NCBI GenBank assembly: GCA_951406725.2
Contig: OX597823.1
Coordinates: 69,068,001 to 69,132,000 of the forward strand
Reading direction: 5' to 3'
DNA length: 64,000 bases
Source of the DNA: Octopus vulgaris
Taxonomy: Eukaryota
Translations under genes and position numbers: made by a program
Part shown: positions 7,504 to 64,000 of the stretch, in pieces
Numbering within the stretch: the stretch's first letter is position 1
Layout: each line of letters starts with the position of its first letter
The notes under the pieces: model-generated
Databases searched by the model: none
What the model was told of the DNA's origin: nothing
The model's input: the letters and a program-made list of their open reading frames with translations, nothing else

Positions 7504-8036
7504 TCATAAATTACAGCTATTTCAACTTAATTTATAAAAGCAAGTTTTTCCTCAATAATAAAATATCATTAAAATATAATTGTTATTGATATAGGTAAAA
7601 CAACCCCAGTAAATTCTTCAGATATTTAATATCCCTTAGGTGGTTATTTAACGTCTAGCTAAATTGTATATATATATATATATATATACATATACACATA
7701 CACACACACACACAAAATTAGGGATAAAACCACAGATCCATTTGGCATCTGTTTCTAGCATGTTGGTGAGGTGTATCTGCACCATTTGATATAATTATAT
7801 ATACATATATATATATATATGTTGTAGTAGATCGACTCCTTTCTTTGTGCGGATTTCATTGACTTTTATTAGATACTGCGAACAAACAGAAGAAGAAATT
7901 AGACAACTTTAAATGTTCATCTGCTAAAATAACAGTCTTTTTTTAAAAAAAGTCACTACATTACTGACCACCAGTAGATCATATCTTAATATAGTTAATG
8001 TATATTTAAGATTTAAGTTTGCAAATGAGAGACTAA

Positions 8037-8612
8037 CAGAAAGTATGGAAGCTAGCAATGCCAAATCACAGAAAGTATGGAAAACTAGCAATGCCAAAAT
8101 CACAAAGTATGGAAATCTAGCAATGCCAAAATCACAAAGTATGAAAAGCTAGCAATGCCAAAATCACAAAGTATGGAAAGCTAGCAATGCCAAAATCACA
8201 AAGTATGGAAAGCTAGCAGTGCCAAAATCACAAAGTATGGAAAGCTAGCAGTGCCAAAATCACAAAGTATGTAAAGCTAGCAGTGCCAAAATCACAAAGT
8301 ATGTAAAGCTAGCAGTGCCAAAATCACAAAGTATGGAAAGCTAGCAGTGCCAAAATCACAGAAAGTATGGAAAGCTAGCAATGCCAAAATCACAAAGTAT
8401 GGAAAGCTAGCAATGCCAAAATCACAAAGTATGGAAAGCTAGCAATGCCAAAATCACAAAGTATGGAAAGCTAGCAGTGCCAAAATCACAAAGTATGTAA
8501 AGCTAGCAGTGCCAAAATCACAAAGTATGGAAAGCTAGCAGTGCCAAAATCACAAAGTATGGAATGCTAGCAATGCCAAAATCACAAAGTATGGAAAGCT
8601 AGCAATGCCAAA
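8037..8612. repeat. 32-bp minisatellite, about 18 units
   Basis: Head-to-tail unit AAAGTATGGAAAGCTAGCA(A/G)TGCCAAAATCAC with no spacers. Confidence 0.97.
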
Positions 8613-8671
8613 GATTTATGTGGATGCTTATGGTATTTGATATGGATAGAATAGGCCACACAAATACAACT

Positions 8672-8884
8672 TTAACTCTTGAACATTCAGATTTCTTTGT
8701 CAAATGTAAATCTTATTTATTCACATTGTTTTGAATTAATCATACATTTTCTCATAGCTTCACAATTTCTATGATGTGGTTGTTTATTTGTAGGGTAGGT
8801 GTGAGACATTGGATCTGCTCAGTTTTAACATAAAACCAGGAGAATATCTGGATCAGAAATGGCTGGATTAAATGCTAGAGTGAA
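8672..8884 (-). mobile_element. Degenerate TTAA-type MITE (same family as 26481-27141)
   Basis: Internal ttatttattcacattgttttgaattaatca is the reverse complement of part of the 26481-27141 element. Decayed TIRs ttaactcttgaacatt / aatgctagagtgaa. Confidence 0.65.
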
Positions 8885-9789: not shown

Positions 9790-10350
9790 TCAAACCAAAT
9801 AAAATCAGATATCAGAAAGCAGAACCAAAATTGAGGTCGATCAACATCAGTGGAAATTGCAGCTGTGGTTAAGCGAACCATCCAATCGTGGCCGTTGCCA
9901 GCGCCGCCCCGTCTGGCCTCCGTGCTGGTGGCACGTAAAAGCACCATCCGTTCGTGTCCGTAGCCAGCCTCGCCTGCCCCCCATGCCAGTGGCACGTAAA
10001 AGCACCATCCGTTCGTGTCCATTGCCAGCCTTGCCTGGCCCCCGTGCCGGTGACACGTAAAAGCACCATCCGTTCGTGTTCGTTGCCAGCCTCGCCTGGC
10101 CCCCGTGCCGGTGGCACGTAAAAGCACCATCCGTTCGTGGCCGTTTGCCAGCTCCGTCTGGCACCTGTGCGGGTGGCACGTAAAAAGCACCCACTACACT
10201 CATGGAGTGGTTGGCGTTAGGAAGGGCATCCAGCCATAGAAACACTGCCAGATCAGACTGGGCCTGATGCAGCCTTCCGGCTTCACAGACCCCAGTTGAA
10301 CCGTCCAACACATGCTAGCATGGAAAGTAGACGCTAAATGATGATGATGA
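9790..10350 (+). mobile_element. RTE-LINE 3' UTR (family B) with about five 61-bp tandem units
   Basis: GCACCATCC recurs at 9941, 10002, 10063 and 10124. It ends with ggagtggttggcgttaggaagggcatccagc...catgctagcatggaaag and a (GAT)n tail. Confidence 0.9.
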
Positions 10351-10365
10351 TATATATATATATGC

Positions 10366-10560
10366 AGTTAATTCAAACAAGAAAGCACAAAAAACACAAC
10401 AATGCGAGGATGTGGAACAAATATAGTATTATTGGACGCTCAGGAAAGAAGGAAAGAAGGAGGGTTTAACTTTCGAGCGGAGCTCTTCGTCGGAAACACA
10501 GGAAAAGGAAAGATCCAGAGAAGGGAAGACAGTGGAAAAAAAATCGCCAACAGTACGCGC
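10366..10560 (-). mobile_element. Family C about 190-bp element (putative solo PLE pseudo-LTR) with minimal hammerhead motif
   Basis: Near-identical to 17378-17572 and 61446-61652 and flanked by (TA)n. Minus strand 10464-10497 reads GUUU-CCGACGA-A-GAGC-UCC-GCUC-GAAA-GUU-AAAC. Confidence 0.75.
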
Positions 10561-11272: not shown

Positions 11273-12404
11273 CTAGCTGATAGGGCAGCTTATAAGCTAG
11301 CTCCTGTGGAGTGCTCTTCTTTGGACCTTGGGCCCAAAAACGACACTTCATGCATTGAGTACATATCAAATTTTATTAAACTTGACCAATATTTTTCAAG
11401 CAATGAACAATTTTCATCAAAACAATGATATAATTTGTTGACCTGGAACTTATTGCAAAGCTGCATGATAAACAGCATTTTTAGTCATCCCATTTGCGGA
11501 TCAGTATAATTTTTTTTTTCTATCTAACCTCTTTCTCTCTCTCTCTTTTTCTCTCACTTTTACTCTTTACTCTTTTACTTGTTTAAGTCATTTGACTGTG
11601 GCCATGCTGGAGCACCGCCTTTAGTCAAGCAAAGCAACCCCAGGACTTGTTCTTTGTAAGTCTACTACTTATTCTATCAGTTTCTTTTGCCAAACCGCTA
11701 TGTTACGAGGGATGTAAACACATCAGCATCGGTTGTCAAGTGATGTTGGGAAGACAAACACAGACACACAAACATATACACACACATACATATATATATT
11801 TGTACATATATATGATGGGCTTCTTTCAGTTTTTGTCTACCAAATCCACTTACAAGGCTTTGATCGGCCCAAGGCTATAGTAAAAGACACTTGCCCAAGG
11901 TGCCACACAGTAGGACTGAACCCGAAACCATGTGGTTGTACTTACCTAACAGCCACTCCTGTGCCTATGTTGATTGTTTTCTACCATCACCAGTACACCA
12001 CCATCGCCACCACAACTGCTATATATACACACTATTCAGACTTCTGACATAACCATCATCGATATCTTTGACTTCGCTGCCTTCCCTGCCAACACCATCA
12101 CCACTGTCTTTCCCATACCCGAATGCCTCAGCTACCACCACTACCACCACCAGCACTACCACCACCACCACCACCACCACCATCATCGTTGCCTCTGCTC
12201 TATCACAACTACAGCTCATGGTATTACTATCACCTCATTACCATCACAACCAGCAAGCTACCACTACCTTCACTGTCTCTATGACTACTATTACTCTCAC
12301 CCCAGCAGGTGGAATAGTAGAAGTGTCATTGAATAGTGAAAGTGGAGGGTCAAAGTGTGACACGTTGACACACAGAAATTTGTTTTGGCATTTATTATCA
12401 TAGA
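11273..12404 (-). mobile_element. Non-autonomous Helitron, interrupted by a family A SINE
   Basis: Minus strand starts A|TC (12404) and ends CTAG|T (11273), with the palindrome AGCTTATAAGCT just before the end. A second copy lies at 21331-21983. Confidence 0.8.
11557..11965 (-). mobile_element. tRNA-derived CORE-like SINE (family A)
   Basis: Reverse complement of the 23122-23531 element, absent from the second Helitron copy. Confidence 0.9.
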
Positions 12405-13195: not shown

Positions 13196-13585
13196 ATTTT
13201 TCACTTGTTTCAGCCATTGGGCTGCAGCCATGCTGGGGCACGTCGCGAAGAACTCTTAATTGAATGAATCAACCCTACCACTTAATTTTCAAGCCTGGTA
13301 TTTATTCTATCAGTTGCTTTTGCTAAACCCACAAAGCTACAGGAATGTAATCACATTAACACCAGTTGCCAAGTAGTGGTGGAGGACAAACATAGACCCA
13401 AAGACACATACACACATCTATATGACAAGCTTCTTTCAGTTTCTCTATGCTAAATCCATTCACAAGGCTTTGATCAGCTTGAGGTTATAACAGAAGACAC
13501 TTTCCACTGGTGCCATGCTATAGGATTGAACCTGGTACCATGTGACTGTGAAGTAACCTTTTTACCACACAGTCACACCTGTACC
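13196..13585 (-). mobile_element. Family A SINE, diverged full-length copy
   Basis: Collinear similarity to family A from the tail (cttgtttcagccatt) to the head (ccacacagtcacacctgtacc). Confidence 0.8.
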
Positions 13586-13635
13586 TATTTCTACCACACA
13601 AACATGCCTTCACCTATTCTTACCACACAGCCATG

Positions 13636-13769: not shown

Positions 13770-14890
13770 TTTTGGGGGATGGCATTGTATATTGTTTTGT
13801 GACAACATCGTGTCACATAGGGAGGTGGTACCTTGACATTTTTGTGCAGTTGCTAATCATATGTATGATGTCATCCTCAGAAATATGACATAAACTATAT
13901 TTTCAGTTACATCTTGGATCTCTAAGGGCATCATTGCCTCTTTTGTTCATTATGTATTTAGTAGAACTCTCCTGTTCTTAGCCCTTGAAGTGTGATGTAG
14001 GACTAACGAGTCCAAGAGAGTCTTCGCTTCATGTTAATATTAGTATCTTCTTCAAATCTAACGAGTAACATACCCATGCATGGTCTTTTTTTTTTTGGAA
14101 TGCTAAGCATTTCACCTCCAGGTCTTCTTTGATGTATACCACTCCAACTGATTTGGAGTTGTATGAGAGGTCATTGGAAAGAAAGTGCTTCCTGAGGAGT
14201 TCCCTTCCAACACATAGAATATTGTTTTCTTCTCTTTTCAACACTACATTAATGCATTTATTTTTGCTTTTGTTGTTTAGCAAGTGCTGTCTGAGAGAGA
14301 TTATATGACATTCAAAGGCTGTCTACACTGATCTCAAGCCCCATACCTCCTTTATCTCTACTTAGGTAAAGCCTGTTGATATCACTACTTTTGTGGAGTT
14401 TTCCAGTTGATGTTAGAATCTTGTGGCTTTTAATGTCTATGGAATGGATTTCTTCAACAGACCAGTCAAGTATCCCAAATGTTGGAATCAGCACTGGCAC
14501 TGCAAATGCATTGTGGGATATTGTCTTGTTGCAAGAGGAGAGTGCAAGGCGGCAAGCTAGCAGAATTGTTAGCACACTGGGTGAAATTCTTAGCGATATT
14601 TCGTCTGCCAATACGTTCTGAGTTCAAATTTCGCTGAGGTCGATTTTGCTTTTGATCCTTTCAGGGTCAATTGAATAAGTACCAATTACACACTGGGGTC
14701 GATGTAATCGACTTAATCCCTTTGTTTGTCCCCAGTATGTTTAGCCTCTTGTGGGCAATAAAGAAATAAGAGGAGAGTTCAGACTACCATATGTTTCTTA
14801 GTCTGGTGCAATATTCTTGGGTCCATTCTATCTTTATTCCCAGTACTTTTGTATGATGCATTTTCACCAATGCCTGTGCACTTGCAGCAT
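13770..14890 (-). pseudogene. R4/Dong-clade non-LTR retrotransposon relic (RT C-terminal region to CCHC)
   Basis: NKTISHNAFAVPVLIPTFGILDWSVEEIHSIDIKSHKILT...DINRLYLSRDKGGMGL matches the R4-type motif. Downstream HMISNC...HD is a zinc-knuckle remnant. It is split by a family D SINE. Confidence 0.8.
14546..14767 (+). mobile_element. tRNA-derived SINE (family D) with 11-bp TSD
   Basis: Head aaggcggcaagctagcagaa, B-box-like gagttcaaattt and central gtcgattttgcttttgatcctttcagggtc. AAGAGGAGAGT is duplicated at 14533-14543 and 14768-14778. Confidence 0.9.
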
Positions 14891-14914
14891 TCTTTGTGTG
14901 GTACAGTATAAATA

Positions 14915-15287
14915 GTGAGACCATTTGAGCATGATCGTTGCCAACATTTTCTGACTGGCTCCTGTACCGGTGTCACGTAAAAAACACCATTTGAGTGTGG
15001 CTGTTGCCAGTGCTACCAGACAGGCTCCTGTGTGGGTGGCATGTAAAAAGCACCATTTGAGTGTGGCCTATGCCAGTACCGCCTGACAAGCCCTTGTGCC
15101 GGTGGCACATAAAAGCACCCACTACACTCTTGGAGTGGTTGGAATTAGGATGGGCATCCAGCTGTAGAAAATTTGCCAGATCAGATTGGAGCCTGGTGCA
15201 GCCTTCTGGCTCACAACCCCTCAGTCAAACCGTCCAACCCATGCCAGCAGGAAAAGCGGATGTCAAACGACTACAATGATGATGATT
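14915..15287 (+). mobile_element. RTE-LINE 3' UTR (family B)
   Basis: About three tandem units plus the conserved terminus and (GAT)n. Confidence 0.88.
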
Positions 15288-15798: not shown

Positions 15799-16589
15799 TA
15801 TATATACATATATAAATAAATACATATATATATATATATTTATATATATATATATACACATACATTTATATATATATACACATTTGTATACATATATACA
15901 TATATATACACACATATATATATATATACACACACACATTTACATATGTAATATATATATATATTCTTTGTCCAGTCAGACTAAATCAGTTTTGATCATA
16001 TATAAATACTTCAGTGTATTTTCTCTCTCAATATTCTAATCTTGTCTCTTGCAGTTAATTTGTCATATTCCGTTGCATCCGATTATTATCTTTTGAATAT
16101 ATTTACATTGTTATTTCGAGACAAAAGCTTATGGCAATGATCAAAACAATCAAATTGACTTAATGATGTTTTCAATTTGAAACCAAAAGAAATTTATTCA
16201 AAAACTTCAACCGCTTATACAAGGGTCAAGCAATTGACAATAAAATGAATAATGAAGTTGAGTAAATTTTGTCATTACTGATTGATTTTTTTTTTTTTTT
16301 TTCATATTTATTAAACCATAGGGAAAATTTATTCTCTTTTAATCATGATACATATATGTCAATGTGTGTATTTATGCCTGGATCAATATAAAAGGATTCC
16401 TACACACAGTCACAATCATACATACATACACACACCGGCAAGCATGTACACACAAATACACATATAAATGGACACAACATATGTGCATATGTGTGAGTGT
16501 GTGTGTGTGTATGTGTACATATATACATGCTCACACACAGATCCACACACACACACAAAAACACTCACACAGACATATTGACTACTTAC

Positions 16590-16795
16590 TTACTTTTACT
16601 TGTTTCAGTTATTTGACTGTGGCCATGCTGGAGCACCGACTTTAGTCGAGCAAATCGACCCCAGAACTTATTCTTTGTAAGCCTAGTGCTTACTCTATCG
16701 GTCTCTTTTGCCGAACTGCTAAAATACGATGACATAAACACACCAGCATCGGTTGTCAAGCGATGTTGTGGGGACAAACACAGATACACAAACAT

Positions 16796-16830
<35 letters not shown>

Positions 16831-16903
16831 CATATATACGACGGGCTTCTTTCAGTTTGCGTCTACCAAATCCACTCACATGGCTTTGGTCGACCTGAGG
16901 TTA
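16590..16903 (-). mobile_element. Family A SINE, head truncated
   Basis: Close match to the 3' two-thirds of family A. Confidence 0.88.
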
Positions 16904-17330
16904 TCTCTATCTATCTATATATATACATATATATATATATTTACAGAGAGAGAGAGAGAGAGAGAGATACATGCATACATACATATATACATACATACAT
17001 ATATGTATGCATATGTATAAACCCCATATTTCATTTATGGTGAGCTACTGATTAGCACTACCGGTCATTGCATGATGATGGGAATATCACAGGAGAGATA
17101 CAGTCTCTCATGTTAGCTCACAGTATCATCTTGTCTTGATTCTGAGGCTGAGGAGGAGCTAGCTTCTCTGAAATGTGTAATGCATCTCCAAATGTGGTTA
17201 GGTGGCACTGCAAGTTGATTTGGTGTATGTACAGCAATTTAGCAACAGCAAAAAATATGCCTCAAACAGATTTGAACTGGTAACAAGTTTGTATTTATAC
17301 ACATCACTGCTTAGCTCAGTTGCATCATAT

Positions 17331-17377
<47 letters not shown>

Positions 17378-17380
<3 letters not shown>

Positions 17381-17569
17381 TGATTCAAACAAGAAAGCAC
17401 AAAAAACACAACAATGCGAGGACATGGAACAAATATAGTATTATTGGACGCTCAGGAAAGATGGAGGGTTTAACGTTTTGAGCGGAGCTCTTCGTTGGAA
17501 ACATAGGAGAAGGAAAGATCCAGAGAAGAGAAGACAGAGGAAAAAAAATCACCAACGGTACACACGTGG

Positions 17570-17611: not shown

Positions 17612-17616
<5 letters not shown>

Positions 17617-17778
17617 TAGGAAGGGCATTAGCGTTAGGAAGGGCATCCAGCTGTAGAAACATTGCCAGATAAGACCGGAGCCTGGTGCAGCCTTCTGGCT
17701 TCCCAGATCCCCGGTCAAACCGTCCAACCCATGCTAGCATGGAGAACGGACGTTAAACGATGATGATGATGATGATGA
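17612..17778 (+). mobile_element. RTE-LINE extreme 3' end (family B)
   Basis: ttaggaagggcatccagctgtagaaac...ggacgttaaac(GAT)n with a small 5' duplication. Confidence 0.88.
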
Positions 17779-17896: not shown

Positions 17897-18828
17897 GTTA
17901 GTTAGTTAGTTAGTTAATTTGGCTCAAAAGCAAATAGCAAGGCCATGTAGGGGAACATGGAGTTAAGTACAGGGTGGTGTTCATGTAAAGAGTTCAGGCC
18001 ACTTGAGGTCCAGGGAGGCTTTGAACAAAGCGGTCGTCGGCATCTTCACCATCTCGTCTGGCAGCTTGTTCCATGGATCTGCAACCCAGACGGAGAAAGC
18101 TCTTCTCCTTCGATTGAGATGAAATCGTCGCAGGTAGAGCTTTTCGGAATGACCCCGCATCCGACGCTCCGGAGCAGGAGTGAAGAACAGCTCTTTCGAG
18201 AGGTTACACTTCCCGCTTATGATGTTGTGGGTGAGAATGAGATCACCACGGCGGCGGCGTTTTTCAAGAGAATAAAGGTCGAGCGTCCTCAGCCTTTCTT
18301 CGTAGGACAAATTTTTGAGACCATGAACCATGCGGGTAGCCAGCCTCTGGACTCTTTCGAGATGCTGTATGTCTTTGAGGAGATAAGGAGAAGAGGCTTG
18401 AATCCCATACTCCAATATGGGTCTCACCAGCATGACATAGAGTGGCAGGAATATGGCTGCTGTGAGCATTCCGAATGACCGTCGAATCAAAAACAGAATT
18501 CCGCACGCTTTGTTGGCAGCATGGACGCACTGGGCCGAAGGCGAAAAGGAGGAATCCACCAAGATACCCAGGTCCTTTACCTGATCGGTCCTCTCCAGCA
18601 GCAGACGACCCGGCTCGAAATCAAGTTGAGTTGCAGGAGTAGAGCCGACAGGCAGATGACAGCACTTTGACACGTTCAGACATAGGTCCCAATCGTTAGA
18701 CCACTTCCAAATTTGGTGGAGGCATCGACGAAGATCCTCTATACTACCGCGAGGAGCGACCAGTTTGATATCGTCGGCAAATAGAAGGGTGTGTTGCGTG
18801 AGGTCGTCGGGCAAGTCATTTATGACAA
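17897..18828 (-). mobile_element. 5'-truncated CR1-type LINE inserted in (GT)n
   Basis: RT-coding fragment, short 3' UTR and (TAAC)n tail (gttagttag at 17897-17917), with (GT)n on both sides. Confidence 0.92.
17981..18826 (-). CDS. Partial reverse transcriptase ORF2 (CR1 clade), uninterrupted
   Basis: INDLP...LLFADDIKL, LERVQRLATRMV, LSYEERL, RRRRGDLI, RGHSEKL and WNKLP motifs. About 280 codons without a stop; the ORF-track start is microsatellite read-through. Confidence 0.9.
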   Translation of the reverse strand, partial: VINDLPDDLTQHTLLFADDIKLVAPRGSIEDLRRCLHQIWKWSNDWDLCLNVSKCCHLPVGSTPATQLDFEPGRLLLERTDQVKDLGILVDSSFSPSAQCVHAANKACGILFLIRRSFGMLTAAIFLPLYVMLVRPILEYGIQASSPYLLKDIQHLERVQRLATRMVHGLKNLSYEERLRTLDLYSLEKRRRRGDLILTHNIISGKCNLSKELFFTPAPERRMRGHSEKLYLRRFHLNRRRRAFSVWVADPWNKLPDEMVKMPTTALFKASLDLKWPELFT

Positions 18829-19759
18829 GTGTGTGTGTGTGTCTGTGTATATGTATATATGTAATACAAACACACATACACATATATATTTATATGTATG
18901 TATGTTGAACTGAATGTTTGAATCTATATTTACTCTTTTATTTAGAATTATTCATATTTCTTTATTAATGCTTTATATTCAGTTTGCAACAATGGCATTC
19001 CTGACTTCATTAGTCCATTAATAGTTCAAGCCCTCTGTCTCTTCAACTGAACAGAATGAGAATAATATTGAGCTGCTGTTGTTTACACACTTTACAGTTC
19101 ATTACAAAGGATCATGGGCATAGTGTTTTAACTAATAAAGTCAAAAGCACCAGATTTGAAATTATTCAATGTCTATGTTTTAGTAGAATGTCACAGCATA
19201 TTTCATGTTTGCTGTATCTATGTTAATTTGCTAGGAATAAAGCTTTCATAGTTACTCTTCTCATTTTGAGACAGTTTTATATAAAACGGTAGGCTGTCAG
19301 TACATGAAATTTTGCATCGCATTATAATATACATAAAATAAAATTCGATAGATAAGCTTTAGTTTCAAACATAAAATATAGTATAGTAATAAATTCAAAT
19401 TTACAACAAACGATCCAAGCAGTTTTTATTTTCCAGTAGTAAAGTAACAAAATTAGAACTACACAGCTTGTAGTCCTTGTATGCTGAATGGTTATGCTCT
19501 AGAAGAACTTATTTATAAAGTAATTTCTTCATCCGTTAATTACGACTGACTTGAAACTTGTTATATAAAATATGCTGCAGTTATAAAAATTTTATTGCTC
19601 TACTTGTACTAACAGAACAAATTGGAGATACAAGTAATAGTCACTTGTTGATTCTGGATTAGTCAACTGATACTAGTTTTCTTTTTATATATATGTATAT
19701 ATATATTACAAATGGTAATTTCCATTACTATCATCCCAAATGGAAATTGTAGTTAAGAA

Positions 19760-19992
19760 ACCTGTGCCGGTGGCACATAAAATGCACCATTTGAACGTGG
19801 CTGATGCCAGCGCCGCCTGACTGGCTTCCATGTCATTGACACGTAAAAAGCACCAACTGATCGTGGCCGTTTGCCAGCCTCCTCTGGCCCCTGTGCCGGT
19901 GGCATGTCAAAAGCAACCACTACACTCACAGAGTGGTTGGCGTTAGGAAGGGCATCCAGCTGTAGAAACACTGCCAGATCAGACTGGAGCCT
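19760..19992 (+). mobile_element. Family B fragment, 3' truncated
   Basis: Tandem units plus gagtggttggcgttaggaagggcatccagctgtagaaac. Confidence 0.85.
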
Positions 19993-19995
19993 GAA

Positions 19996-22586: not shown

Positions 22587-22740
22587 GGAGTGGTTGGCGT
22601 TGGGAAGGGCATCCAGCCGTAGAAACACTGCCAGATCAGACTGGGCCTGATGCAGCCTTCTGGCTTCACAGACCCCAGTTGAACCGTCCAACCCATGCTA
22701 GCATGGAAAGCGGACGCTAAATGATGATGATGATGATGAT
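22587..22740 (+). mobile_element. RTE-LINE extreme 3' end (family B)
   Basis: Conserved terminus plus (GAT)n. Confidence 0.88.
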
Positions 22741-22960: not shown

Positions 22961-23121
22961 AATTTGTTAGTCATAATCATCCTTATTTTGCAGCTGTTTC
23001 TTAAATTTTGGTTAATCAACTGAAATATGGAGAAATAATGAAAACTAGAAGTAAATCTTTACAATTTTTTCTTTTATAGATATAATTATAATATGTATAT
23101 AACATGTATGTTATATATATA

Positions 23122-23531
23122 GGCATAGGAGTGGCTGTGTGGTAAGTAGCATGCTTACGAACCACGTGGTTCTGGGTTCAGTCCCACTGCGTGGCACCAT
23201 GGGCAAGTGTCTTCTACTGTAGCCTCAGGCTGACCAATGCCTTGTGAGTGGATTTGGTGGATAGAAACTGAAAGAAGCCTGTCACATATATGTTTATGTA
23301 TATGTATGTGTGTGTATATGTTTGTGTGTCTGTGTTTGTCTCCCCAACACTGCTTGACAACCGATGCTGGTGTGTTTACGTGCTTGTAACTTAGCGGTTT
23401 TTGGAAAAGAGACCGATAGAATAAGTACTTGGCTTACAAAGAATAAGTCCTGGAGTTGATTTGCTCGACTAAAGGCAGTGCTCCAGCATGGCTACAGTCA
23501 AATGACTGAAACAAGTAAAAGAGTAAAAGAG
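23122..23531 (+). mobile_element. Family A tRNA-derived CORE-like SINE, full length
   Basis: A box TGGCTGTGTGG, B box GGTTCAGTCCC, CORE-like ccatgggcaagtgtctt, internal TA/TG microsatellite and (GTAAAAGA)n tail. More than 10 copies occur in the window. Confidence 0.92.
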
Positions 23532-24405: not shown

Positions 24406-24565
24406 TTAGTCGAGCAAATCGACCCCAGGACTTATTCTTTGTAAGCCTATTACTTCTTGTATCAGTCTCTATTGCCAATCCGCTAAGTTACGGGGATGTA
24501 AACACACCAGCATCAGTTGTCAAGCGATATTGGGGGGGGGACAAACACAGACACACAAACACATG

Positions 24566-24631
<66 letters not shown>

Positions 24632-24790
24632 TACAACTGGCTTCTTTCAGTTTCCATCTATCAAATCCACTCACAAGGCTTTGGCCAGCCTGAGGCTATA
24701 GTAGAAGACACTTGCCCAAGGTGCCATGCAGTGGGACTGAACCTGGAACCATGTGGTTCGTAAGCATGCTACTTACCACACAGCCACTCA
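24406..24790 (-). mobile_element. Family A SINE
   Basis: Inverted relative to 23122-23531 and shares the diagnostic head variant agcatgcttacgaacc. Confidence 0.9.
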
Positions 24791-26480: not shown

Positions 26481-27141
26481 CCCTTTAGCATTTAAACTGG
26501 CTATATCCAGCCAAAATATTCTGTTTTATGTTCAAACTAGCCTGATCTGGTATCTCAGTGGAGTGCTAACAGCTCCATCTGAGCGGGATTAGTGCCAGAG
26601 CAGCTGACTGGCTTCCATGCTGGTGGCACGTAAAAAGCACCGTTTGAGTGTGATCGTTACCAGCGTCACCTTACTGGCACTTGTGCCGGTGGCACATGAA
26701 CAAAACATTCGAGCGAGGTCATTGCCAGTGTCTCTAGACTGACTCCTGTGCAGGTGGCACATAAAAAACACCATTTTGAGCGTGGCTGTTGCCAGTACCA
26801 CCAGACTGGCCCTCGTGCTGGTGTTATGTAAAAGCACCCACTACACTCTCGGAGTGTTTGGCGTTAGGAAGGGCATCCAGCTGTAGAAACTCTGCCAGAT
26901 CAGATTGGAACCTGGCACAGCCGTCTGGTTCACCAGTCCTCAGTCAAATCGTCCAACCCATGCTAGCATGGAAAGTGGACGTTAAATAATGATGATGATG
27001 ATGATGATCATACAATATCATTCTAGAAATAATCAATGACATCATTAAAATCTTGAAGCTACAAAATAATGCTTGATTAATTCAGAAACAATGTGAATAA
27101 ATAGGCATTATATTTGAAGGAGCAGTCTGAATGCTAAAGGG
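26481..27141. mobile_element. TTAA-flanked (piggyBac-type) MITE with nested family B copy
   Basis: TTAA-CCCTTTAGCATT ... AATGCTAAAGGG-TTAA. Confidence 0.88.
26575..27008 (+). mobile_element. RTE-LINE 3' UTR (family B) nested in the MITE
   Basis: About four tandem units, conserved terminus and (GAT)n. Confidence 0.88.
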
Positions 27142-28287: not shown

Positions 28288-29210
28288 ATCATCATCATCA
28301 TCATCATCATTTAACGTCCGCTCTCCATGCTAGCATGGGTTGGACGGTTCAACTGGGGTCTGGGGAGCCCGAAAGCTGCACCAGTCCAGTCAGATCTGGC
28401 AGTGTTTCTACAGCTGGATGCCCTTCCTAACGCCAACCACTCCGAGAGTGTAGTGGGTGATTTTATGTGCCACCGACACAGGTGCCAGACGAGGCTGGCA
28501 AACGGCCACGCTCGGATGGTGTTTTTTATGTGCCACCGACACAGGTGCCAGACGAGGCTGGCAGACGGCCACGCTCGGATGGTGTTTTTATGTGCCACCG
28601 ACACAGGTGCCAGATGAGGCTGGCAAACGGCCACGATCGGATGGTGTTTGTTACGTGCCCACAGCACGGAGGCCAGTCGATGCGGTACTGGCTACGGCCA
28701 CGTTCGGATGGTTTTCTTGTGTGCCACGTGCCACCGGCACTGGTACCACAAAAATAAAAATTCCATTGATGTTCATCTATTTTGATTTGTTTTGATTTTC
28801 ACTTGCCTCAACAGGTCTTCACAAGTGTCACAAGAAGGAGGGTATGCACAGGTGGACTGACTACGTCCCAGGTAGGGGCCACAGGTTATGGCCTGACTAG
28901 TCTTGCCGGGTCTTCGGATGGTGTTTTTATGTGCCACCGACACAGGTGCCAGATGAGGCTGGCGAATGGCCACGATCGGATGGTGTTTGTTACGTGCCCA
29001 CAGCATGGAGGCCAGTCAGTGCGGTACTGGCTACGGCCACGTTCGGATGGTTTTCTTGTGTGCCACCGGCACTGGTACCACAAAGATACAATTCCATTAA
29101 TGTTCATCTATTTTGATTTGTTTTGATTTGATTTGATTTGATTTGTTTTGATTTCATTTTGATTTTCACTTGCCTCAACAGGCCTTCACAAGTATCACAA
29201 GGAGGAAAGG
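28288..29210 (-). mobile_element. RTE-LINE 3' UTR (family B) with internal duplication
   Basis: (ATC)n tail, terminus, tandem units and a UTR start homologous to 42238-42370. The segment about 28575-28840 is repeated at 28915-29200. Confidence 0.9.
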
Positions 29211-30943: not shown

Positions 30944-31155
30944 AAGGCAGCAGGCTGGTAGAGTCGTTAGCACTCCAGGTGAAACGCTTAGCACCATTTC
31001 ATCCATCTTCAGGTTCCGAGTTCAAATTCTGTTAAGGTCGACTTTGCCCTTCATCCTTTCAGGGTCGATAAAATAAGTAGCAGTTAAACACTGAGTTGAT
31101 GTAATCAACTTACTCATCCCCTGAAATTGCCGGCCTTGTGCTAAAATTTGAAATC
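30944..31155 (+). mobile_element. Family D SINE in (ATT)n
   Basis: ggtcgactttgcccttcatcctttcagggtcgataaaataagta central block. Confidence 0.85.
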
Positions 31156-31193: not shown

Positions 31194-33185
31194 AGGGGTG
31201 ATTTAATCCTCTAACACCTTCGCTCAAATTTCTAGCCTTGTGTCTATGCAAATAACATTTATTATTATCATAATCAACATCAACTCTTCTACTATTTCTA
31301 AAAGCACTCAACCTTCAAACAACCTCAAATTTGATTACATACCAGAAAATACTTTTTACAAAACTATATTTGATTTTATGGAAACCTATGCAGTAGTGTT
31401 GATAATGATTATCTTAAATCTACATCCCCTGTTTTCATGTGTAGAAAATGAATGAATTCTAAACTTTTGTCATGTGTATATATAAGCAAAGTACTAAAAT
31501 AGCTGTATTAAAATTTATTTTCTCTTCAATATTCCTTGCAGTCCTTTTAATTTTACATTATTCATAACAGAATTTTTATTTACAACATTTATATTTATTA
31601 TTCACAGACAGATTTGTCACTAATGTGGACTGGAATTTGTTAAAGGAAAAGAATAGAAAAGTTGGAAAGAAACAAGGAGAGAAAGCTTTCATTTGAAAGT
31701 CTTCATTGATATTTCAATGTTTCCTTAAGCAAATATTCTTTGACTCAAGCAGTCAAGGTGAATATTTGTGTCACATATTCACTTCTTTAATGGAATAGTT
31801 GGGGTCTAAAGGTCATACATACTCTAGTAATTCAGCCAAATATTCAGAATTTTAAAACCAGTCACCTCTCTTCAACATAAAATGAAAATGAAATTTCGAA
31901 TATGGAACTAGGAATGAATAAAAATAACTTACAAAAATAAGATTAATTATTTGAAATATTATTAAAAAATGAAAACGAGATTTTATAATAATTATGTTCA
32001 TGAATATAAGACTAGACTTTATTTTATCAACCATCCAATATGAATGAACAGCAAGGGAAAGAAGACACTAGTGGAATTTAAACTGAATTTAACAAAGTCA
32101 TATAAAGCATTTTGTCCACTGCTGTACTGATTCCCCAATTCATATACTTTTAATGAGGTACAAATAAGCACTTATTTTATTATAAGTCAGTATTAACAAT
32201 AATTGTAATAATTATTAACATAGGATCAAAACTGTGCATTTTGAGTGAAAATTGATCTAAAAAAAAAGCTGTGGAATTCAAACTTTAAAAGGCAAAGAGA
32301 AGCAATTAAATACCGTAAGGTATATTTGTCTAACATTCCGCTGATTCGACCAAACAAAGAACAGGGAGCAAAATACCCAGCTGAATAAGAACAAAGTACG
32401 GGACATTACTGCATCAAATATAGCTATTAACATTGTTAAAATAACACTGAAGCAAACCAAAATTAGCTGGAAAAACTTTTAAGGAAATTAATGTTAATGA
32501 TGTATCAATGTATTATTTTAAATGTCATTAGTCTATGCTTAATTTGAAAATTAGGCTTTATTAATGTCTACACTAAATACTAGTTGGAAATCAGGCACCA
32601 TTGCATTAATGGAGCTCAAGTTAAATCAAAACAGACAACTGGGCTGTAAACAAAGAAAGAAAACTGTTTCAAATGAAAGTAATGTAATTCTACTAAAAAT
32701 TAAAAGCAGTATGAATATGTAAAAATTGATACATAATATGTGTGAAATATGGGGTGTGTAAAAATACACATTACTAGAAATGGATAAACTGGTAATCTAT
32801 AAAAATAATTGCAATCTAAATGAAGGGGCGGACTTCATTCCACAAATATCTCAGATGGAATAGAAAGACATAAAAAGAAATGCCTCCAGAATTCATATCT
32901 TACAGTTATACTTTAACTTTAAAAGAGATTTCTGCATTTCTGCAAAATATACTTAAAATAACTGAAGAAGAAACAACCCTGATATAAAAATAACTTTGGA
33001 TCCCAATGTAAGAAGATAGATTATCAAGATTGAACACAACATCAGAAAGAGAACACTTGAAAAAAATATATAGGAACGATACAAACAGCAAACAGACAAA
33101 TATCAGTAAAAATACAAATATTAAATAAAGAATTAAAACTAGAGATATTGATTTCTTAGATAAGTACAAGGACAGACATTTTTAG

Positions 33186-33308
33186 GATAAAAGGCAAAGT
33201 CGACCTTGGCAGAATTTGAAGAAATTTTAAATGAGAACATGAAGAAGGTTGAAATGCCACTTAGCATTTCACCTGGCTTGCTAATGATTCAGCCAGCTCA
33301 CCACCTCA
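33186..33308 (-). mobile_element. Family D SINE 5' half
   Basis: ggataaaaggcaaagtcgaccttggcagaatttgaa...gccagctcaccacct. Confidence 0.78.
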
Positions 33309-33343
33309 CCAAATCATAAACTATTGACAATAAATGGCAATAA

Positions 33344-33765
33344 AAGGTGGCTAGCTGGCAGAAACGTTAGCATGCCAGGCAAAATGCATAGCCGTATTTC
33401 GTCTGTCGTTATGTTCTGAGTTCAAATTCCGCCGAGGTCAACTTTGCCTTTCATCCTTTCGGGGTCGTTAAATGAAGTACCAGTTATGCACTGGGGTCGA
33501 TATAATCGACTTAATATGTTTGTCTGTCCTTGTTTGTCCTCTCTGTGTTTAGCCCCTTGTGGGTAGTAATCAAATAGGTATTTCGTCTGCCATTACATTC
33601 TGCATTCAAATTCTGCCAAGGTCGACTTTGCCTATCATCCATTTAGGATCAATTAAATAAGTACCAGTTATGCACTGGGTCGATGTAATCAACTTAATTC
33701 CTTTGTCTGTCCTAGTTTGTCCCCTCTACATTTAGCCTCCTGTGAGCAATAAATAAATAAATAAA
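33344..33765 (+). mobile_element. Family D SINE with duplicated body
   Basis: One head followed by two consecutive bodies, each starting gtatttcgtctg (about 33395 and 33578). Confidence 0.88.
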
Positions 33766-34749: not shown

Positions 34750-35463
34750 AGGCAAGATGACAAAGGACTGAGACAGATGGTACCTGCCCATTCTCAAGAA
34801 GATCTGTAACCCACAACAGACGTGTTAAAACCAGTCCTGCTGTTGGTGTAAAGTATTCGTGGCAATGCCATGTAAAAGAGCCATGGTGGTTGGGTGGTGC
34901 CATGTAAAAGCGTCTGTGTGGTGTCACATTAAAGCACCTGTATGGTGCCTTGTAAAAGTGCCCGTGCTGTTCCACATAACAGTGCCTGTGTGGTGACACA
35001 TAAAAGTGCATGTGCAGTGACATGTAAAAGTACCTGTGTGACACATAAAAGCACGTGTGTGGTGCTACATAAAAGCACTTCTGTGGAATCACATAAAAGT
35101 GCCTATGTGGTGTCACATAAAATGCCCAGGTGGTGCCATGTAGAAGTGCCCAAGTGATGCCACATGAAAGTGCACGTGTGGTGCTATGTAAAGGTGCTTG
35201 TTCAATGCCATGTAAGAGCACTCATGCAGCGTCACATAAATGTGCCCATGTGGTGTCACATAAGAGTGCATGTATGGTGTTATGTGAAAGCACCCAACAC
35301 ACTTTATAAAGTGGTTGGCCTTGCTAAGGGCATCCAGCCATAGAAGCCATGTCAAATCAGACTGGAATCTGGTGCATCTCCCCAGCTTGCCAGCTCTGGT
35401 CAAAGCATCTAACCCATGCCAACATGGATAAAGGACATTGAATGATGATGATGAAAATGATGA
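34750..35463 (+). mobile_element. Diverged family B RTE 3' end with 23-24-bp tandem array
   Basis: About 18 units like tgtggtgtcacataaaagcac (34860-35295), then gtggttggc...aagggcatccagcc...aacccatgccaacatgga and (GAT)n. Confidence 0.85.
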
Positions 35464-36920: not shown

Positions 36921-37307
36921 AAGAAATTGGGACAGTTAAGAAAATATGAGAACAAAAGGAAAGGGAAGGGAAAGTAGATGAAGTAAAAAAGTAAAAAAAA
37001 AAAGTGAAGAAATGGAAGTATTAAAACTGGGTAAATGAAGTTACACAGTAAATAAATAAATTAGTGTCTCCAAGCTGATAATGAATATACTAGCTTAAAC
37101 TTTAATGTGAAACAGTTTCAATGTATTTAATGTTATCAGGTACAAGTTTTGATTTATTATCTTTAAGCAATTAATATAACCAATCTTATATGTTGTGATC
37201 TTGTTATGTCTGTTCCACAATATATTCCTCTTTTTCAATGGCTATAGGCTTCTACCAATCCTCTAAAATATCAAATATATATATATGTTATGGGAAGAAT
37301 AATAATT

Positions 37308-37640
37308 AAGGTGGCGAGCTGGCAGAATCGTCAGCAAGCCAGGCGAAATGCTTAGTGGTATTTTGTCTCGACTTTGCCTTTCATCGATTAAATAAGTACC
37401 AGTTACACATTGGGTTCGATGTAATCGACTTAATCCGTTTGTCTGTCCTTGTTTGTCCTCTCTGTGTTTAGTCCCTTGAGGGTAGTAAAGAAATAGGTAT
37501 TTCGTGTGTCATTACGTTCTGAGTTCAAATTCCGCCGAAGTCGACTTTGCCTTTCATCCTTTCAGGGTCAATTAAGTACTAGTTACGTACTGGCCTATCC
37601 TTGTTTGTCCTCTCTACGTTCAGCAATATAGAAATAAATA
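37308..37640 (+). mobile_element. Family D SINE with duplicated body, nested in the putative LTR
   Basis: Head aaggtggcgagctggcagaa and two bodies, flanked by (AAT)n. Confidence 0.88.
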
Positions 37641-37790
37641 ATAATAATAATAATGGAACACCCCTTCCCACACGACGAGTAGTATTTGATAGTCGTTACA
37701 AATACTGTGATGTCGAGAAATCTGAAAGTCGGTCATAGATAGTTGTGTCTTACTTGGACGTTATAACAGTCCGACGTTGGATTACAACAG

Positions 37791-37802
37791 TGGCGACGAG
37801 GA
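37791..37802 (+). promoter_or_regulatory. Primer binding site complementary to the tRNA-Ser(GCU) 3' end
   Basis: TGGCGACGAGGA lies one base after ...CAACA and is complementary to ...UCCUCGUCG-CCA. Confidence 0.75.
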
Positions 37803-38288
37803 ATTAACGAACTCACAAGTAGTTACGAAACTCACAAAAGTTTTTTTGTGCAAATTTAACGGTATACAAAAGCGTAAAATTATGGATATTTTGTTGGCCG
37901 GTTTGCTCGAGTTGCAAATACAGCAACATCAACAACTTTGGGAACAGCAGCAGCAGCTGCTGCAGGAACAGCAGCAACAACAATTATTATTACAACACCA
38001 AATGCTGAAATTAATGAATAGTAAGTCATCCAAAAATGCTGAAAAGATGTTCTCACCAGATTGTGCTGCAAACTCAATGACGGAATTTAAATATGAACCA
38101 GACGAAGGAGTTCGAGGATTACTATAGAAGATATGAACATGACTTCAATAAACAGTGCAAAGATTAGGATGACGATAGGAAAACGTGCCTAATCCTAAGA
38201 AAACTGGCAGCAGGAGAACATGAGCATAACAGCAATTATGTACTCCCGTAAAAACCTCCTGACATAATATTTAAAAATACAATAGACA

Positions 38289-38712
38289 TCTTCTTTATAT
38301 ATAAAAGTGAAGTTGTGTGCCTGTCTCCTACGATTTAGATTCCTAACTACTCCCACATTTTGCAGTGCAGTTTAACCAAAACCGGGTATCTTATAGTCGT
38401 GATTCATTTCGAGCCCTTCTGGGTATTAGCGCGCGTCTATGATGAGTCAACGATTTTTAAAAAAATTCCTAACTACTCCCACATTTCGCAGTGCAGTTTA
38501 ACCAAAACCGGGTATCTTATAGTCGTGATTCATTTCGAGCCCTTCTGGGTATTAGCGCGCGTCTATGATGAGTCAACGATTTTAAAAAAATTTACCATCA
38601 TTTTTTTTCATTTTTAATGCATTTTTTGCTATTTTTTGGCTATAACTCTCTAAAAAATGCTTATATAGTTATTTCCCTTACAAACCCGAGCAACGCCGGG
38701 CGATACTGCTAG
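38289..38712 (+). mobile_element. Non-autonomous Helitron inserted in Gypsy gag
   Basis: A|TC start, subterminal hairpin CCCGAGCAACGCCGGG, CTAG|T end and an internal about 126-bp tandem duplication. Removing it restores the gag frame TIDILYKIFSENSSLFN. Confidence 0.92.
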
Positions 38713-40694
38713 TATTGTATAAAATTTTTAGCGAGAACAGCTCATTGTTCAATACATGCTGGAAATGTTTGAACCTAGAAAAGGCAGAGGAGGACTATAT
38801 CACATATGCTGGTAGAGTTAACAGAGAATGTGAATAGTTCAAACTGAGCAAATTAATGCCAGATATGTTCAACTGTCTGATATTTTCTCAGGAACTAACT
38901 GCAGAAAAAGACGCTGAAGTAAGAACAAAAATTTTCGCTAGGATGGAACAAAACCAAATTGTAAACTTAAACAAGTGTCAGAAGAGTGTGAAAGAATAGT
39001 AAATTTATGATGCGACACAGAGAAAATTGAACATAAAGATTGCTCTTAAGTGAAACAAGTGCGAAATAGGCAGAGTAAAAATCAAGTGCGTACTAAAATA
39101 TAGCACAAACAGAACAAAAATCAGGAAACAAACCTTTGTTTTGCATGTGGAGGTCTACACTTGTGAAAAACCGCCCATTTAAGAAAAACTGCCCCTTTTT
39201 CCGTTTTGGAAAAATTGGACACGTAAAAGCCCACTGTAAAACCAAGATGATAAAGCGTTGGAACAAAGATAAAAGAATAAACAAGATATCGTTAAAAAAA
39301 AATGGAAATATAACAAAGAGGAAATTCATAAATGTGAAAACTGATAATATAAGAGTAAAAATGCAATTAGATACTGGAAGTGAATGAAGAAACTTGGAAG
39401 TATATCGCTAAGTCAAAATTAAGTAAATCCACAAATGTAGCACATGGTGTTATGGGTAAAATATTGTATTATGTAAATGAATATGTGTGTAATGTGACAT
39501 TTCATGACCAAATGAAAACGGCAAACGTATATGTGTTAAAAAATACAGTTAATCTGTTCATCGTGGAGTGGATGGAACTATTTGAATTGTGGAATAAGCT
39601 CATAAGTGTTTTGTGTGGGAATATAGTCGGTTCAGTCGAAGGTTCGAATGTGGTTGAGCGATTGAATCGAAAAATAAAACATTCATTTCTCGGATGAACT
39701 GGGCTGCTGCACAAAACGAAGGCAAAAGTTGCAGTAAAACGAAGTGCAATACCTGTATTTAGACCAAAACGGAATGTACCATTTGTGGCATTAGAACAGG
39801 TAAATAAGGAACTTATAAGACTTGAGAGCCTAGGATTAATTGAGAAGTCAGACCACTCAGATTGGGCAGCACCTAGTCTATGTAAAAAGAATAATAATAC
39901 ATTAAGAGTTTGTGCAGATTTTTTAACGAGTTTAAATGATTGCTTAAGCTCACATAACTATCCCTTGCTGTGTCCTGAGGAAGTGTTTGCAAAATTGTAT
40001 GGAGGGAAATTCTTCTCAAAATTAGACCTCTCGGAAGCATATTTACAAATCCAAGTAGAAGAAGAATGTTCACACTTATCAGCCATTAATACACACTGTG
40101 GCTCATTTACATACATATATTTCAATACATATAGGGACAGAGAGCAAAGATACACACTTTTGTAGAGACTGGCTACTTGATGGATGTAAATTTTTTAATA
40201 ATGAAGTATTTTATTTTGTGACATTGTTTTTGAAAACTAAGAAGTTATATTTAACATAAATGACAGGCATCATTTTTCTGCTGAGATAGTCTTTACAAAA
40301 GGTTAAGACCCAAGAGAAATAACAAAGGTTAAGACCCAAAAGGAATAAACAAAAATTAAGTCCCCAGAGGAATAATAATGAGCTCCCATAAGTGCGTAAG
40401 TAAATACCAAAACTGCAAACTTATGGGAAAAAGATGAGATGAAATTTCTAAATAACGAATGTATCAAACTATTTTATGTTTTCATATTTGTTAACATCTG
40501 CAGCTGGAGCAAGCCAACCAAGCACCAAGGAAGACAGATACAGTGCACAAATTGTGGAAGCTCTTCCTAGCAATTTTAAACTCACTGTAAACAATTGGAT
40601 ATATATGCTGATCAGATGGTCATAGTGATCAGCTAAAAGTACCACAGAACAAGGACTTCGCCCAATCACACCCTTGGGCTCTTGTATTGATAGT

Positions 40695-40962: not shown

Positions 40963-41275
40963 TGAGGGTTGTTCATTAAAGATTTCCCCTGACCCACTTC
41001 CCAAGGACAAGGATAAACAGAACTTGGCATAATTATTAGTCCTTCTCTACATAGCCATCCCCAATGGTGACACACGTCTCCCATTGCTTTATGCAACTGG
41101 GAAGACCTCATCTGTATAAGTTGGTAGGTTGTGTTTGGAGCCAAGACTTTACTTCAGAAATAAGTTCATCATCATCCAAAAAGTGGTTCCTCTTCAAAAA
41201 AGAATTCACGGTTGGAAAGAGGCAGAAGTCAAATGGTGTGAGGTCAGGAGAATAATGGGGATGTGGAAGGATTTC
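40963..41275 (-). mobile_element. Mariner transposase C-terminus and 3' end
   Basis: LPHPHYSPDLTPFDFCLFP...F.DDDELISEVKSWL...WETCVTIGDGYVE (YSPDL motif). Confidence 0.85.
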
Positions 41276-41299
41276 CACAAAGAAATTATAGGTTAAAAT

Positions 41300-45997: not shown

Positions 45998-46361
45998 GGC
46001 GTAGGAATGGTTGTGTGGTTCCAGGTTCAGTCCCACTGCATGGCACCTTGGGCAAGTGTCTTCTACTATAGCCTTGGGCCAACCAAAGCCTTGTGAGTGG
46101 ATTTGGTAGATGGAAACTGAAAGAAGCCTGTCGTACATATGTATACATATATATAGGTATGTGTGTATATATGTTTGTGTGTCTGTGTTTGTACCCCTCC
46201 AACATCACTTGACAACCAATGCTGGTGTGTTTAGCAGTTCGGCAAAAGAGACTGATAGAATAAGTACTAGGCTTACAAAGAATAAGGCCTGGGGTCGAAT
46301 TGCTTGACTAAAGGCGATGCTCCAGCATGGCCAAAGTCAAATGACTGAAAAGGTAAAAGAG
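45998..46361 (+). mobile_element. Family A SINE with short internal deletions
   Basis: Head-to-tail match with TAATTGT on both flanks (possible TSD). Confidence 0.9.
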
Positions 46362-46695
46362 TAATTGTCAACCCAAGATAGTTTATAATTTAGGAACAAG
46401 ACCAACAATTTTGGGTTAACCAATTAAACTGAACCCAGTATTTAACTTGTACTTTATATTACTGACTCTGTATGGATTAAAGGTAAAGTTCACCAAGGTG
46501 GGATTTGGTCTGAGAATGTAAAGAGACTTATCCAAATGTAATACAAAGAATACAATCTATTGTCGATGCTTTATTGATTGTGCTTCCACTTCACACAGGC
46601 AGATATATGCAAATAAGTGAATAAAAAAGTGTACTCATTACAGATGTAGAGTAATACAGACATGCATATACACACACACACACACTCACATATAC

Positions 46696-48924: not shown

Positions 48925-49269
48925 CAGCAGCAGTAGTAGTAGTGTGTGTGTATGTGCTTTGGGTGGATGTACCATAAGCAAACAGCTAATGAGATAACCT
49001 CCTCCCTAAAATACAGGAGCACAATCCATTTCAATATACTTAAAAACTATAATTTTCCAACTACAAATTTCATATGTGTATACTCTAAGCAGTGTATGAA
49101 TTGACTTTTGGACACGTAGCATTTGTTTTTGAAATTTCTAGTCTCATGTGGACATAGACTAATTGTATTACTCATATGACCTGATGAGAGTCTAAAACAT
49201 TTTCTTTTTCTTTAATTTGAAATTAGCTTTTATCCTTCTGAATAAATAATAATAATTCTTTCTTTTATT

Positions 49270-49470
49270 AGCAGAAGGCCTGAAATTTTGTGGTAGGGGA
49301 CTAGTTGGTTGCATCAACTCTAGTGTTCAACTGGTACTGACTTCATCGACCTTGAACAGATGAAAGGTAGAGTCAACCTTCATGGAATTTGAACTCAATG
49401 TAAAACTGGCCGAAATGTCACTAAGCATTGTGCTTTGGCATGTTCATGGTTCTACCTGCTCGCTGCCTTA
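49270..49470 (-). mobile_element. Family D SINE
   Basis: actggtact...atcgacc...gatgaaaggtagagtcaacc...ggaatttgaactca...ctcgctgcctt. Confidence 0.8.
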
Positions 49471-56039: not shown

Positions 56040-56445
56040 CTCTAATAGTGGAGGGAACGTGTGAAAGAGGTAGATCCAGGATGATGCAGGGCAAAAGGGT
56101 AAGAAAGGATCTTCAGATGTTTGGCTTCACAGAGAATATGGCAACTGACCAAGATTTCTGATGGCTTGCTGTTTGAGAAGATATATCAAGCTAAGTAAAA
56201 TTGTCACTGACCATGCATACAGGTATGTCCTCTACATCGCTGTTTCAACTGAAAGAACCTAGGCAGTCTCATGAGAGCTGGCATCATGTAAAAGCACTCA
56301 TGCTGGTTCCAAGTAAAAGTACCCAGCACACTCTGTTAAGTGGTTAGTATTAGAAAGGGTATCCAGCCATAGAAACCATGCCAAAACGAACAAATGGAGA
56401 CAGGACAGGTCTCCAGTTGACCAGTTCTTGTCAAAATGTCCAACT
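56040..56445 (+). mobile_element. Old family B RTE 3' end including ORF terminus
   Basis: VEGTCERGRSR...RKDLQMFGFTENMATDQDF*WLAV followed by UTR and gtggttagtattagaaagggtatccagcc. Confidence 0.78.
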
Positions 56446-59127: not shown

Positions 59128-59129
<2 letters not shown>

Positions 59130-61445: not shown

Positions 61446-61652
61446 AGTTAATCCAAATATCAAAGTACAAAGAGAAAACACAACAAGGCGAGGATGTGGA
61501 ACAAGTATAGTGTTATTGGACGCTCAGGAAAGGAAAGAAAGAAGGAGGATTTAACGTTTCGAGCGGAGCTCTTCATCAGAAACATAGAAAAAGGAAAGGT
61601 CCTAGGAAGGGAAGACAGAGGAAAAAGAATCGCCAACGATACACACGCACTC
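61446..61652 (-). mobile_element. Family C element
   Basis: Third copy, next to (TA)n. Confidence 0.78.
61549..61583 (-). ncRNA. Minimal type I hammerhead ribozyme motif (canonical core)
   Basis: GUUU-CUGAUGA-A-GAGC(UCC)GCUC-GAAA-CG-U-U-AAAU. Stem III is reduced to the palindrome ACGU, as in PLE hammerheads. Confidence 0.7.
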
Positions 61653-62341: not shown

Positions 62342-62540
62342 AGTTCAAATTTAGAGAAAACAAAAGATGAAGTCAGGTGAGGGAACAACAGCCAGGTATA
62401 TTAATTTGATTGCTTGGGAAGAATGGAAGTCTTTGATGTTTTGAGCTTATGCTCTTTGGCAGAAATTGATGAGAGGGAAAATAATGGAGTTAGGAAAAAA
62501 TGGAAAAAAAAAAAAACAGAGAGAGAAAAATATCTGTAGC
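62342..62540 (-). mobile_element. Diverged family C relative
   Basis: Same layout, with decayed core CUGCCAA-A-GAGC(AUAA)GCUC-AAAACAUC. Confidence 0.55.
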
Positions 62541-63978: not shown

Positions 63979-64000
63979 GACAGAAGAAAAGAAATGTAAT

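Follow-up and report, generated by a model that had tools for sequence, protein, structure and literature searches.

The 64,000-nucleotide stretch of Octopus vulgaris DNA analyzed here (the window) carries dispersed copies of an element of about 190 bp that is built around a minimal hammerhead motif. The locus raises the question of whether these copies descend from a single master with a noncanonical CCGACGA core, in which position 4 of the hammerhead is C instead of U (U4C), or whether this core arose in one branch of an otherwise canonical family, and by what means the element was copied.

Copies of the element and their hammerhead motifs

Four copies, here called c1 (10366..10556), c2 (17378..17561), c3 (61446..61647), and c4 (62342..62515), were located, all on the minus strand, an agreement with a chance of 1 in 8. 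When the four stretches were compared with the window by blastn, c1, c2, and c3 matched one another with E values of 1e-50 to 1e-69, and their ungapped identities were 93.8% (c1/c2), 89.2% (c1/c3), and 85.5% (c2/c3). c4, an older diverged relative with an undefined 5' end, was not recovered by blastn within the window, and its match to the three-copy profile was weak (nhmmer, E 0.24), with no match in the reversed-window control. Its mean local score of 60.3 exceeds those of all 2058 other window tiles (maximum, 41) and was reached by none of 1000 local-block shuffles (maximum, 45), and a spurious match was therefore rejected. These comparisons bear out a preliminary description, made from the sequence alone, of three close copies and one diverged copy. 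In addition, a motif combining stem II with RAAA has just four occurrences in the window, one in each copy. The defined 5' ends vary by a few bases only. All copies are single, with none of the four in a tandem, partial-tandem, or inverted arrangement, and no terminal redundancy was seen in their alignment. On neither side are the flanks of c1 and c2 related to each other (local scores of 16 to 23), and homology ends at the element ends, so that the copies represent separate insertions. Three close copies in 64 kb correspond to about 47 per Mb (Poisson 95% interval of about 10 to 137, calculated by hand from this one window).

No description of this family was found in the literature searched, although Repbase, Dfam, and the repeat library of PMC13282606, which lie outside that search, may contain it. 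The four element motifs had no occurrence in a full-text literature search, and a degenerate stem II/III pattern with the core left free matched no locus in metagenomic contigs and none in viral contigs. A 9.9-kb stretch of the window was present, whole or in part, in 20 of the 24 sequencing runs listed, all of which are assembled contigs and none RNA; this stretch is rich in other repeats, and the run listing is therefore not specific to the element.

Read on the minus strand, the element opens with about 55 pyrimidine-rich bases; the hammerhead comes next, followed by a U-rich part of about 100 bases and then (AU)n. The c1 hammerhead (10464..10497) has stem I GUUU/AAAC, the core CCGACGA (C4 at 10492, and C7), an extra A, stem II GAGC-UCC-GCUC, and GAAA-GU-U, with a predicted cleavage site at 10468/10467. 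It lacks C15.2 and reads GAAAGUU, so that no palindrome is present. The c2 hammerhead (17468..17502) retains the ACGU palindrome and has the core CCAACGA (C4, with G5 changed to A) together with a change of G12 to A, and it is predicted to be inactive. The c3 hammerhead (61549..61583) is intact and canonical, reading GUUU-CUGAUGA-A-GAGC-UCC-GCUC-GAAA-CG-U-U-AAAU, with stem I GUUU/AAAU, one extra A, U16.1, U17, and a predicted site at 61553/61552. The c4 hammerhead (62431..62466) is decayed and reads CUGCCAA (U4)-A-GAGC-AUAA-GCUC-AAAA-CA-U-C, with C17 instead of U17; three of its positions may reflect CpG-to-CpA decay from a CUGACGA...GAAACGUC type. The cores of c1, c2, and c3 are as first described, whereas a reading in which all copies carry the full motif does not hold, as c1 and c2 have lesions and c4 is decayed. 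The CUGANGA core is found in c3 only (one of the four copies), c1 and c2 having C4 and c4 having U4 with decay at positions 6 and 8. The box of GAAA, palindromic 15.2/16.2, U16.1, and H17 is complete in c3 and decayed in c4; c1, which lacks C15.2, and c2, with G12A, are each affected at a single position. The whole motif is intact in one copy of four. All four share an unpaired nucleotide separating A9 from 10.1, as well as the G10.1-C11.1 pair that closes stem II.

A strict minimal-hammerhead descriptor applied to the window recovered c3 as a canonical core, and also c1 if position 4 was freed, and it gave no match in 200 dinucleotide shuffles of the window; a chance origin of the motif was thus rejected. 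Rfam covariance models returned 146 matches at an E value of ≤1, none to a hammerhead family, the matches being microsatellite-driven miRNA/snoRNA noise. Stem II is identical in all copies, with a different loop in c4, and no compensatory change was found in 10 pairs (94.9% of cells pair across the four copies); the four copies thus yield no covariation evidence. The stability of single-strand folding is not unusual (z from +0.62 to -1.34), and the active fold was not obtained among minimum-energy folds of the monomer or the dimer (cofold), as expected of a motif without a stable stem III. In c2 and c3, ACGU can pair with itself, the self-duplex reaching only -1.7 kcal/mol. The palindromic stem III first described is present in these copies and would imply use as a dimer.

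The motif, a minimal type I hammerhead, fits the >80% consensus published for minimal PLE hammerheads, namely, a U-rich 5' flank, CUGANGA-H, G10.1-C11.1, GAAAN, a palindrome, and U-H (PMC4209133, text and Fig. S3), and together with the shuffle control this substantiates its earlier identification as a minimal PLE-type hammerhead. Features described there as recurrent are an additional nucleotide separating 9 from 10.1, the G10.1-C11.1 pair, and palindromic 15.2/16.2 (PMC4209133, Cervera and De la Pena 2014). Like those motifs, the present ones have a short stem I, the extra nucleotide between A9 and G10.1, G10.1-C11.1, GAAAC-GU-U with palindromic 15.2/16.2, and a U-rich flank, and they occur as dispersed single motifs in large families. 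They differ in that stem II is just 4 bp long with a 3-nt loop and that no linked ORF is present in the window. The published motifs are reported to be mainly single, are ascribed to truncated PLEs, and show low cleavage even as dimers (PMC4209133). The preliminary description had regarded cleavage after GUU as atypical. Of the 56 metazoan representatives in PMC4209133, counted by hand, 24 carry U at position 17, 25 carry C, 6 carry A, and 1 carries G; exactly GAAACGUU (C-G-U-U) is present in 15 of the 56, and U17 is present in all three molluscs. A GUU site is therefore ordinary. A further difference concerns position 4, which is C in two of the present copies and U in all 56 representatives, the latter count being biased by the authors' descriptor, which is built on the catalytic boxes (PMC4209133).

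Origin of the C4 core

C4 is common to c1 and c2, which are the most similar pair, and c3 and c4 have U4. Given the private divergence of c1 and c2, the chance of independent T-to-C changes in both is ≤3e-4, and their source therefore carried C4. This part of the proposed U4C master stands, the unrelated flanks of the two copies included; its extension to the whole family is not supported. Per 161 columns, private non-CpG changes number 2 in c1, 4 in c2, and 15, partly clustered, in c3, which also has a 4-nt insertion. The CpGs of c3 outside the core are mostly kept (six of seven, with one lost), compared with an expected loss of about 57% for a copy that derives from the c1/c2 source and differs from it by age alone (P 0.029). 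This expectation was calibrated on four other repeat families of the window, which lost 51 to 85% of CpGs at 9 to 12% non-CpG divergence, and it is biased upward because the sites are partly defined by their own decay. The whole window has a CpG observed/expected ratio of 0.36 with an excess of TpG and CpA, indicating a methylated genome. The best likelihoods were 4.1e-4 for one CCGACGA source and, with a separate source for c3, 2.8e-3 for CUGACGA and 2.8e-2 for CUGAUGA, a ratio of about 7 to 70 in favor of a separate canonical c3 source over a CpG-decayed U4C copy; this argument rests on three copies, and the two-source models have more freedom. Since c3 keeps its CpGs outside the core despite 15 private substitutions, a separate canonical source is favored. 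With moderate confidence, c3 thus appears to represent a sister subfamily and not a CpG-decayed U4C copy, and judging from these sequences, U4C most likely arose as a derived state within a single subfamily, with canonical U4 as the probable ancestral state.

The alternative, as first proposed, is that a single CCGACGA master with a putatively active noncanonical hammerhead gave rise to all copies, the CUGAUGA of c3 being produced by two CpG transitions. Such a master would explain the three cores by just three CpG changes, and heavy CpG loss is evident in the four control families (51 to 85%). When the two core sites are included, c3 lost three of nine CpGs, an outcome that one C4 source for all copies could also produce (P 0.14), and the TG of c4 at positions 4 and 5 could also be a product of CpG decay. 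Natural U4C variants of viroid-like RNAs may keep activity (PMC3088659, PMC9608096). However, c3 retains six of seven noncore CpGs at 9% private divergence, both core changes would have to hit the strand that recreates a canonical core, c4 has U4, and U4 is universal among the 56 published representatives, subject to the descriptor bias given above (PMC4209133). With a likelihood ratio of about 7 to 70 against it, the reading of CUGAUGA as a decay product of CCGACGA is not supported, and the single-master model is considered unlikely.

Published data on U4C come from viroid-type RNAs. The same change of CUGA to CCGA is found in the natural hammerheads of PLMVd variants and of a viroid-like RNA associated with citrus (PMC3088659, PMC9608096). 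U4C is reported to reduce in vitro activity considerably while still allowing infectivity (PMC3088659), one report describes cleavage of a PLMVd variant as unaffected (PMC9608096), and in a mutational scan core mutations including those of the CUGA turn led to low activity (PMC9901934). Those viroid-type changes are minority variants of RNA replicons with tertiary-stabilized ribozymes (PMC3088659, PMC9608096), whereas here two genomic insertions, each with a minimal motif, have inherited the change. The core change in c1 and c2 would likely weaken cutting, and the ribozyme of the C4 subfamily may be weakened or dead. There is a small chance that the youngest subfamily (c1/c2) is instead a very high-copy, PLE-dependent retroposon whose master, with a fixed CCGACGA core, still cleaves as a dimer or with the PLE protein. 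If so, it would provide a genome-fixed U4C hammerhead in an animal, and its occurrence beside a canonical sister subfamily would amount to a natural experiment on PLE ribozyme activity versus mobility in vivo.

Element class and mode of copying

The RNA-3' ends of all four copies lie within 5 nt of a run of at least five TA units, compared with 3.4% of sampled positions (chance of about 1e-6, calculated by hand as 0.034^4). The three defined 5' ends are tied to such runs less strictly: the distance is within 5 nt for the first, within 20 nt for another, and more than 20 nt for the remaining one. The proposed (TA)n association is therefore upheld, above all for the 3' ends. The window contains 71 such runs. 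The 3' end of c1 lies against (AT)n, which is itself preceded by another repeat's (GAT)n tail; c2 is flanked on both sides by long (TA)n, with a run at 17336..17377 at its 3' end, and c1, c3, and c4 are flanked by shorter runs. No target-site duplication was readable within the microsatellite.

No ORF, of a PLE or otherwise, adjoins any of the four copies. A Pfam search of 234 window frames of at least 55 amino acids, none of low complexity or more than 15% masked, gave no GIY-YIG domain and no other PLE domain. Three reverse transcriptase (RT) fragments are present in the window, at 17984-18889, 39698-40162 (E 0.0035), and 41396-41626. The first, on the minus strand, is the 3' part of a LINE RT that is open for 300 codons (RVT_1, E 2.6e-5) and lies about 400 bp from c2 without being joined to it. 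Judged by eye, we take these fragments to be LINE, Ty3-like, and R2/R4-like, respectively, the second presumably belonging to broken Ty3-like gag/RT pieces at 37726-40162 (plus strand) and the third being on the minus strand. As no PLE frame was found at the copies and no GIY-YIG domain in the window, the family assignment comes from the motif and its context only.

This context is consistent with a PLE partner, which is suggested by the motif and by analogy with the microsatellite bias of Neptune PLEs and the (TA)n bias of Naiad PLEs (PMC8557442). Naiad PLEs themselves are described as being without canonical hammerheads (PMC8557442), and the four element motifs are absent from the text of its supplement, which covers Naiad, Chlamys, and Hydra. 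PLEs are reported to be abundant and partly recent in cephalopods (PMC13282606, PMC8967140). The element resembles the pLTRs and 5'-truncated copies of Neptune/Poseidon-type EN+ PLEs (PMC8557442; PAc of PMC11167929) in carrying its hammerhead in a short noncoding unit and in its AT-rich or microsatellite insertion sites without a readable target-site duplication. It differs from them in its uniform length, in having no clear 30- to 40-bp tail, and in the absence from the window of an RT-GIY-YIG ORF and of partial-tandem or inverted copies. Most PLE insertions are reported to be 5'-truncated copies that retain one terminal repeat (bioRxiv 10.64898/2026.07.22.740005). The uniform 5' ends seen here are better explained by a small unit of defined extent than by truncation at random.

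The element is probably a solo pLTR or a short nonautonomous PLE derivative, copied in trans into (TA)n, with U4C likely derived in one young subfamily and cleavage presumably not needed for copying. Its spread would be by retrotransposition, with the reverse transcriptase and GIY-YIG nuclease of a partner PLE copying it in trans into (TA)n runs; the PLE protein would nick AT-rich DNA and reverse-transcribe the short RNA, starting at a defined internal site, which would give uniform ends. In canonical copies, cleavage after U17 would depend on the pairing of two motifs via ACGU, and dimer-dependent cleavage by paired motifs has been reviewed (PMC6765202). In one reconstituted system, that of a lizard PLE, a hammerhead-dead RNA inserts normally in vitro, and the ribozyme cut only in the presence of the protein (PMC11167929). 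By analogy, the ribozyme is likely dispensable for copying of the element; a C4 source could therefore keep transposing whether or not it cleaved, and the C4 subfamily would have kept spreading because cleavage would not be required. The role of the hammerhead for PLEs is an open question, and insertion in vitro does not require it. With a canonical lineage and, next to it, a C4 lineage that gave rise to two or more independent insertions, this role becomes testable using natural sequences. Dispersed minimal hammerheads of PLEs are already known in thousands of invertebrate copies, and the element class is therefore not new; the present family would be a further PLE-type minimal-hammerhead repeat, with the C4 subfamily as a small, testable twist.

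We consider it distinctly unlikely that the copies derive, as dispersed monomers, from a non-LTR retrozyme with tandem source arrays elsewhere that self-cleave and circularize and are reverse-transcribed by a PLE. Animal non-LTR retrozymes are likewise noncoding units of a few hundred bases with one type I hammerhead each, for which PLE dependence has been proposed and among which dispersed monomers occur (PMC7229834; bioRxiv 10.64898/2026.07.22.740005). The size of the element fits their reported range of 51 to 972 bp, the share of monomers varies among their families from none to all, and they are related to pLTRs (bioRxiv 10.64898/2026.07.22.740005); the position of the hammerhead in mid-element and the uniform ends would also agree. 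However, classical retrozymes have canonical hammerheads with loop-loop contacts (PMC7229834). The motif here is instead minimal, its stem I measures 4 bp, a loop-1 partner is not visible, none of the four copies is in tandem in the window, and the alignment shows no terminal redundancy.

Dong-R4 elements target microsatellites. It is nevertheless highly improbable that the element is SINE-like and mobilized by a LINE of this kind, with the hammerhead as a captured relic. LINE-type RT fragments are present in the window, and Dong-R4 was recently active in one cephalopod genome (PMC13282606), but the element has no tRNA-like head, with no tRNA genes in the window and no Rfam tRNA match, no Rfam small-RNA match over it except a microsatellite-driven one, and no similarity to the LINE fragments of the window. 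There is scarcely any likelihood that C4 reached both c1 and c2 by local DNA duplication or gene conversion, as a one-off in a dead copy with no C4 source having transposed, since the two copies, though the closest pair, 7 kb apart on the same strand, have unrelated flanks (scores of 16 to 23) and lose homology at the element ends.

Surrounding sequence

A candidate host exon at 61058-61191 (plus strand) has a strong acceptor, an open frame, and an AG|GT donor, and another may lie near 62045-62120. If these exons are real, c3 and c4 are antisense in introns. A search with the candidate exon gave no usable Atlas match.

One neighbor is a very abundant repeat in which 61- to 68-bp tandem subunits accompany a body, about 140 bp long, that ends in (GAT)n. 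It directly adjoins c1 and lies just past the (TA)n beside c2, and it was located at 9840-10350, 14895-15286, 17616-17775, 19760-19994, 22587-22723, 26557-26987, 28308-29110, 35284-35454, 42407-42822, 56301-56435, and 59128-59317. A motif search of the literature found no paper on it. A second abundant family, of about 390 bp, has two conserved halves separated by an internal (CA)/(TA) microsatellite (11580-11968, 13206-13588, 16578-16904, 23116-23513, 24407-24789, and 46015-46371), and the descriptor found no hammerhead in it. A third dispersed family is older, at about 12% from its majority sequence (14546-14768, 30945-31144, 33184-33747, 37301-37593, 49268-49469, and 63843-63989), with nested pieces at about 33.2 to 33.7 kb. 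A frame at 41111-41308 (minus strand) resembles, by eye, what we take to be the C terminus of a mariner transposase. In addition, a 32-bp minisatellite of about 24 units occupies 7935-8708, and a degenerate 24-bp tandem array at 34880-35290 leads into a copy of the (GAT)n-tailed repeat.
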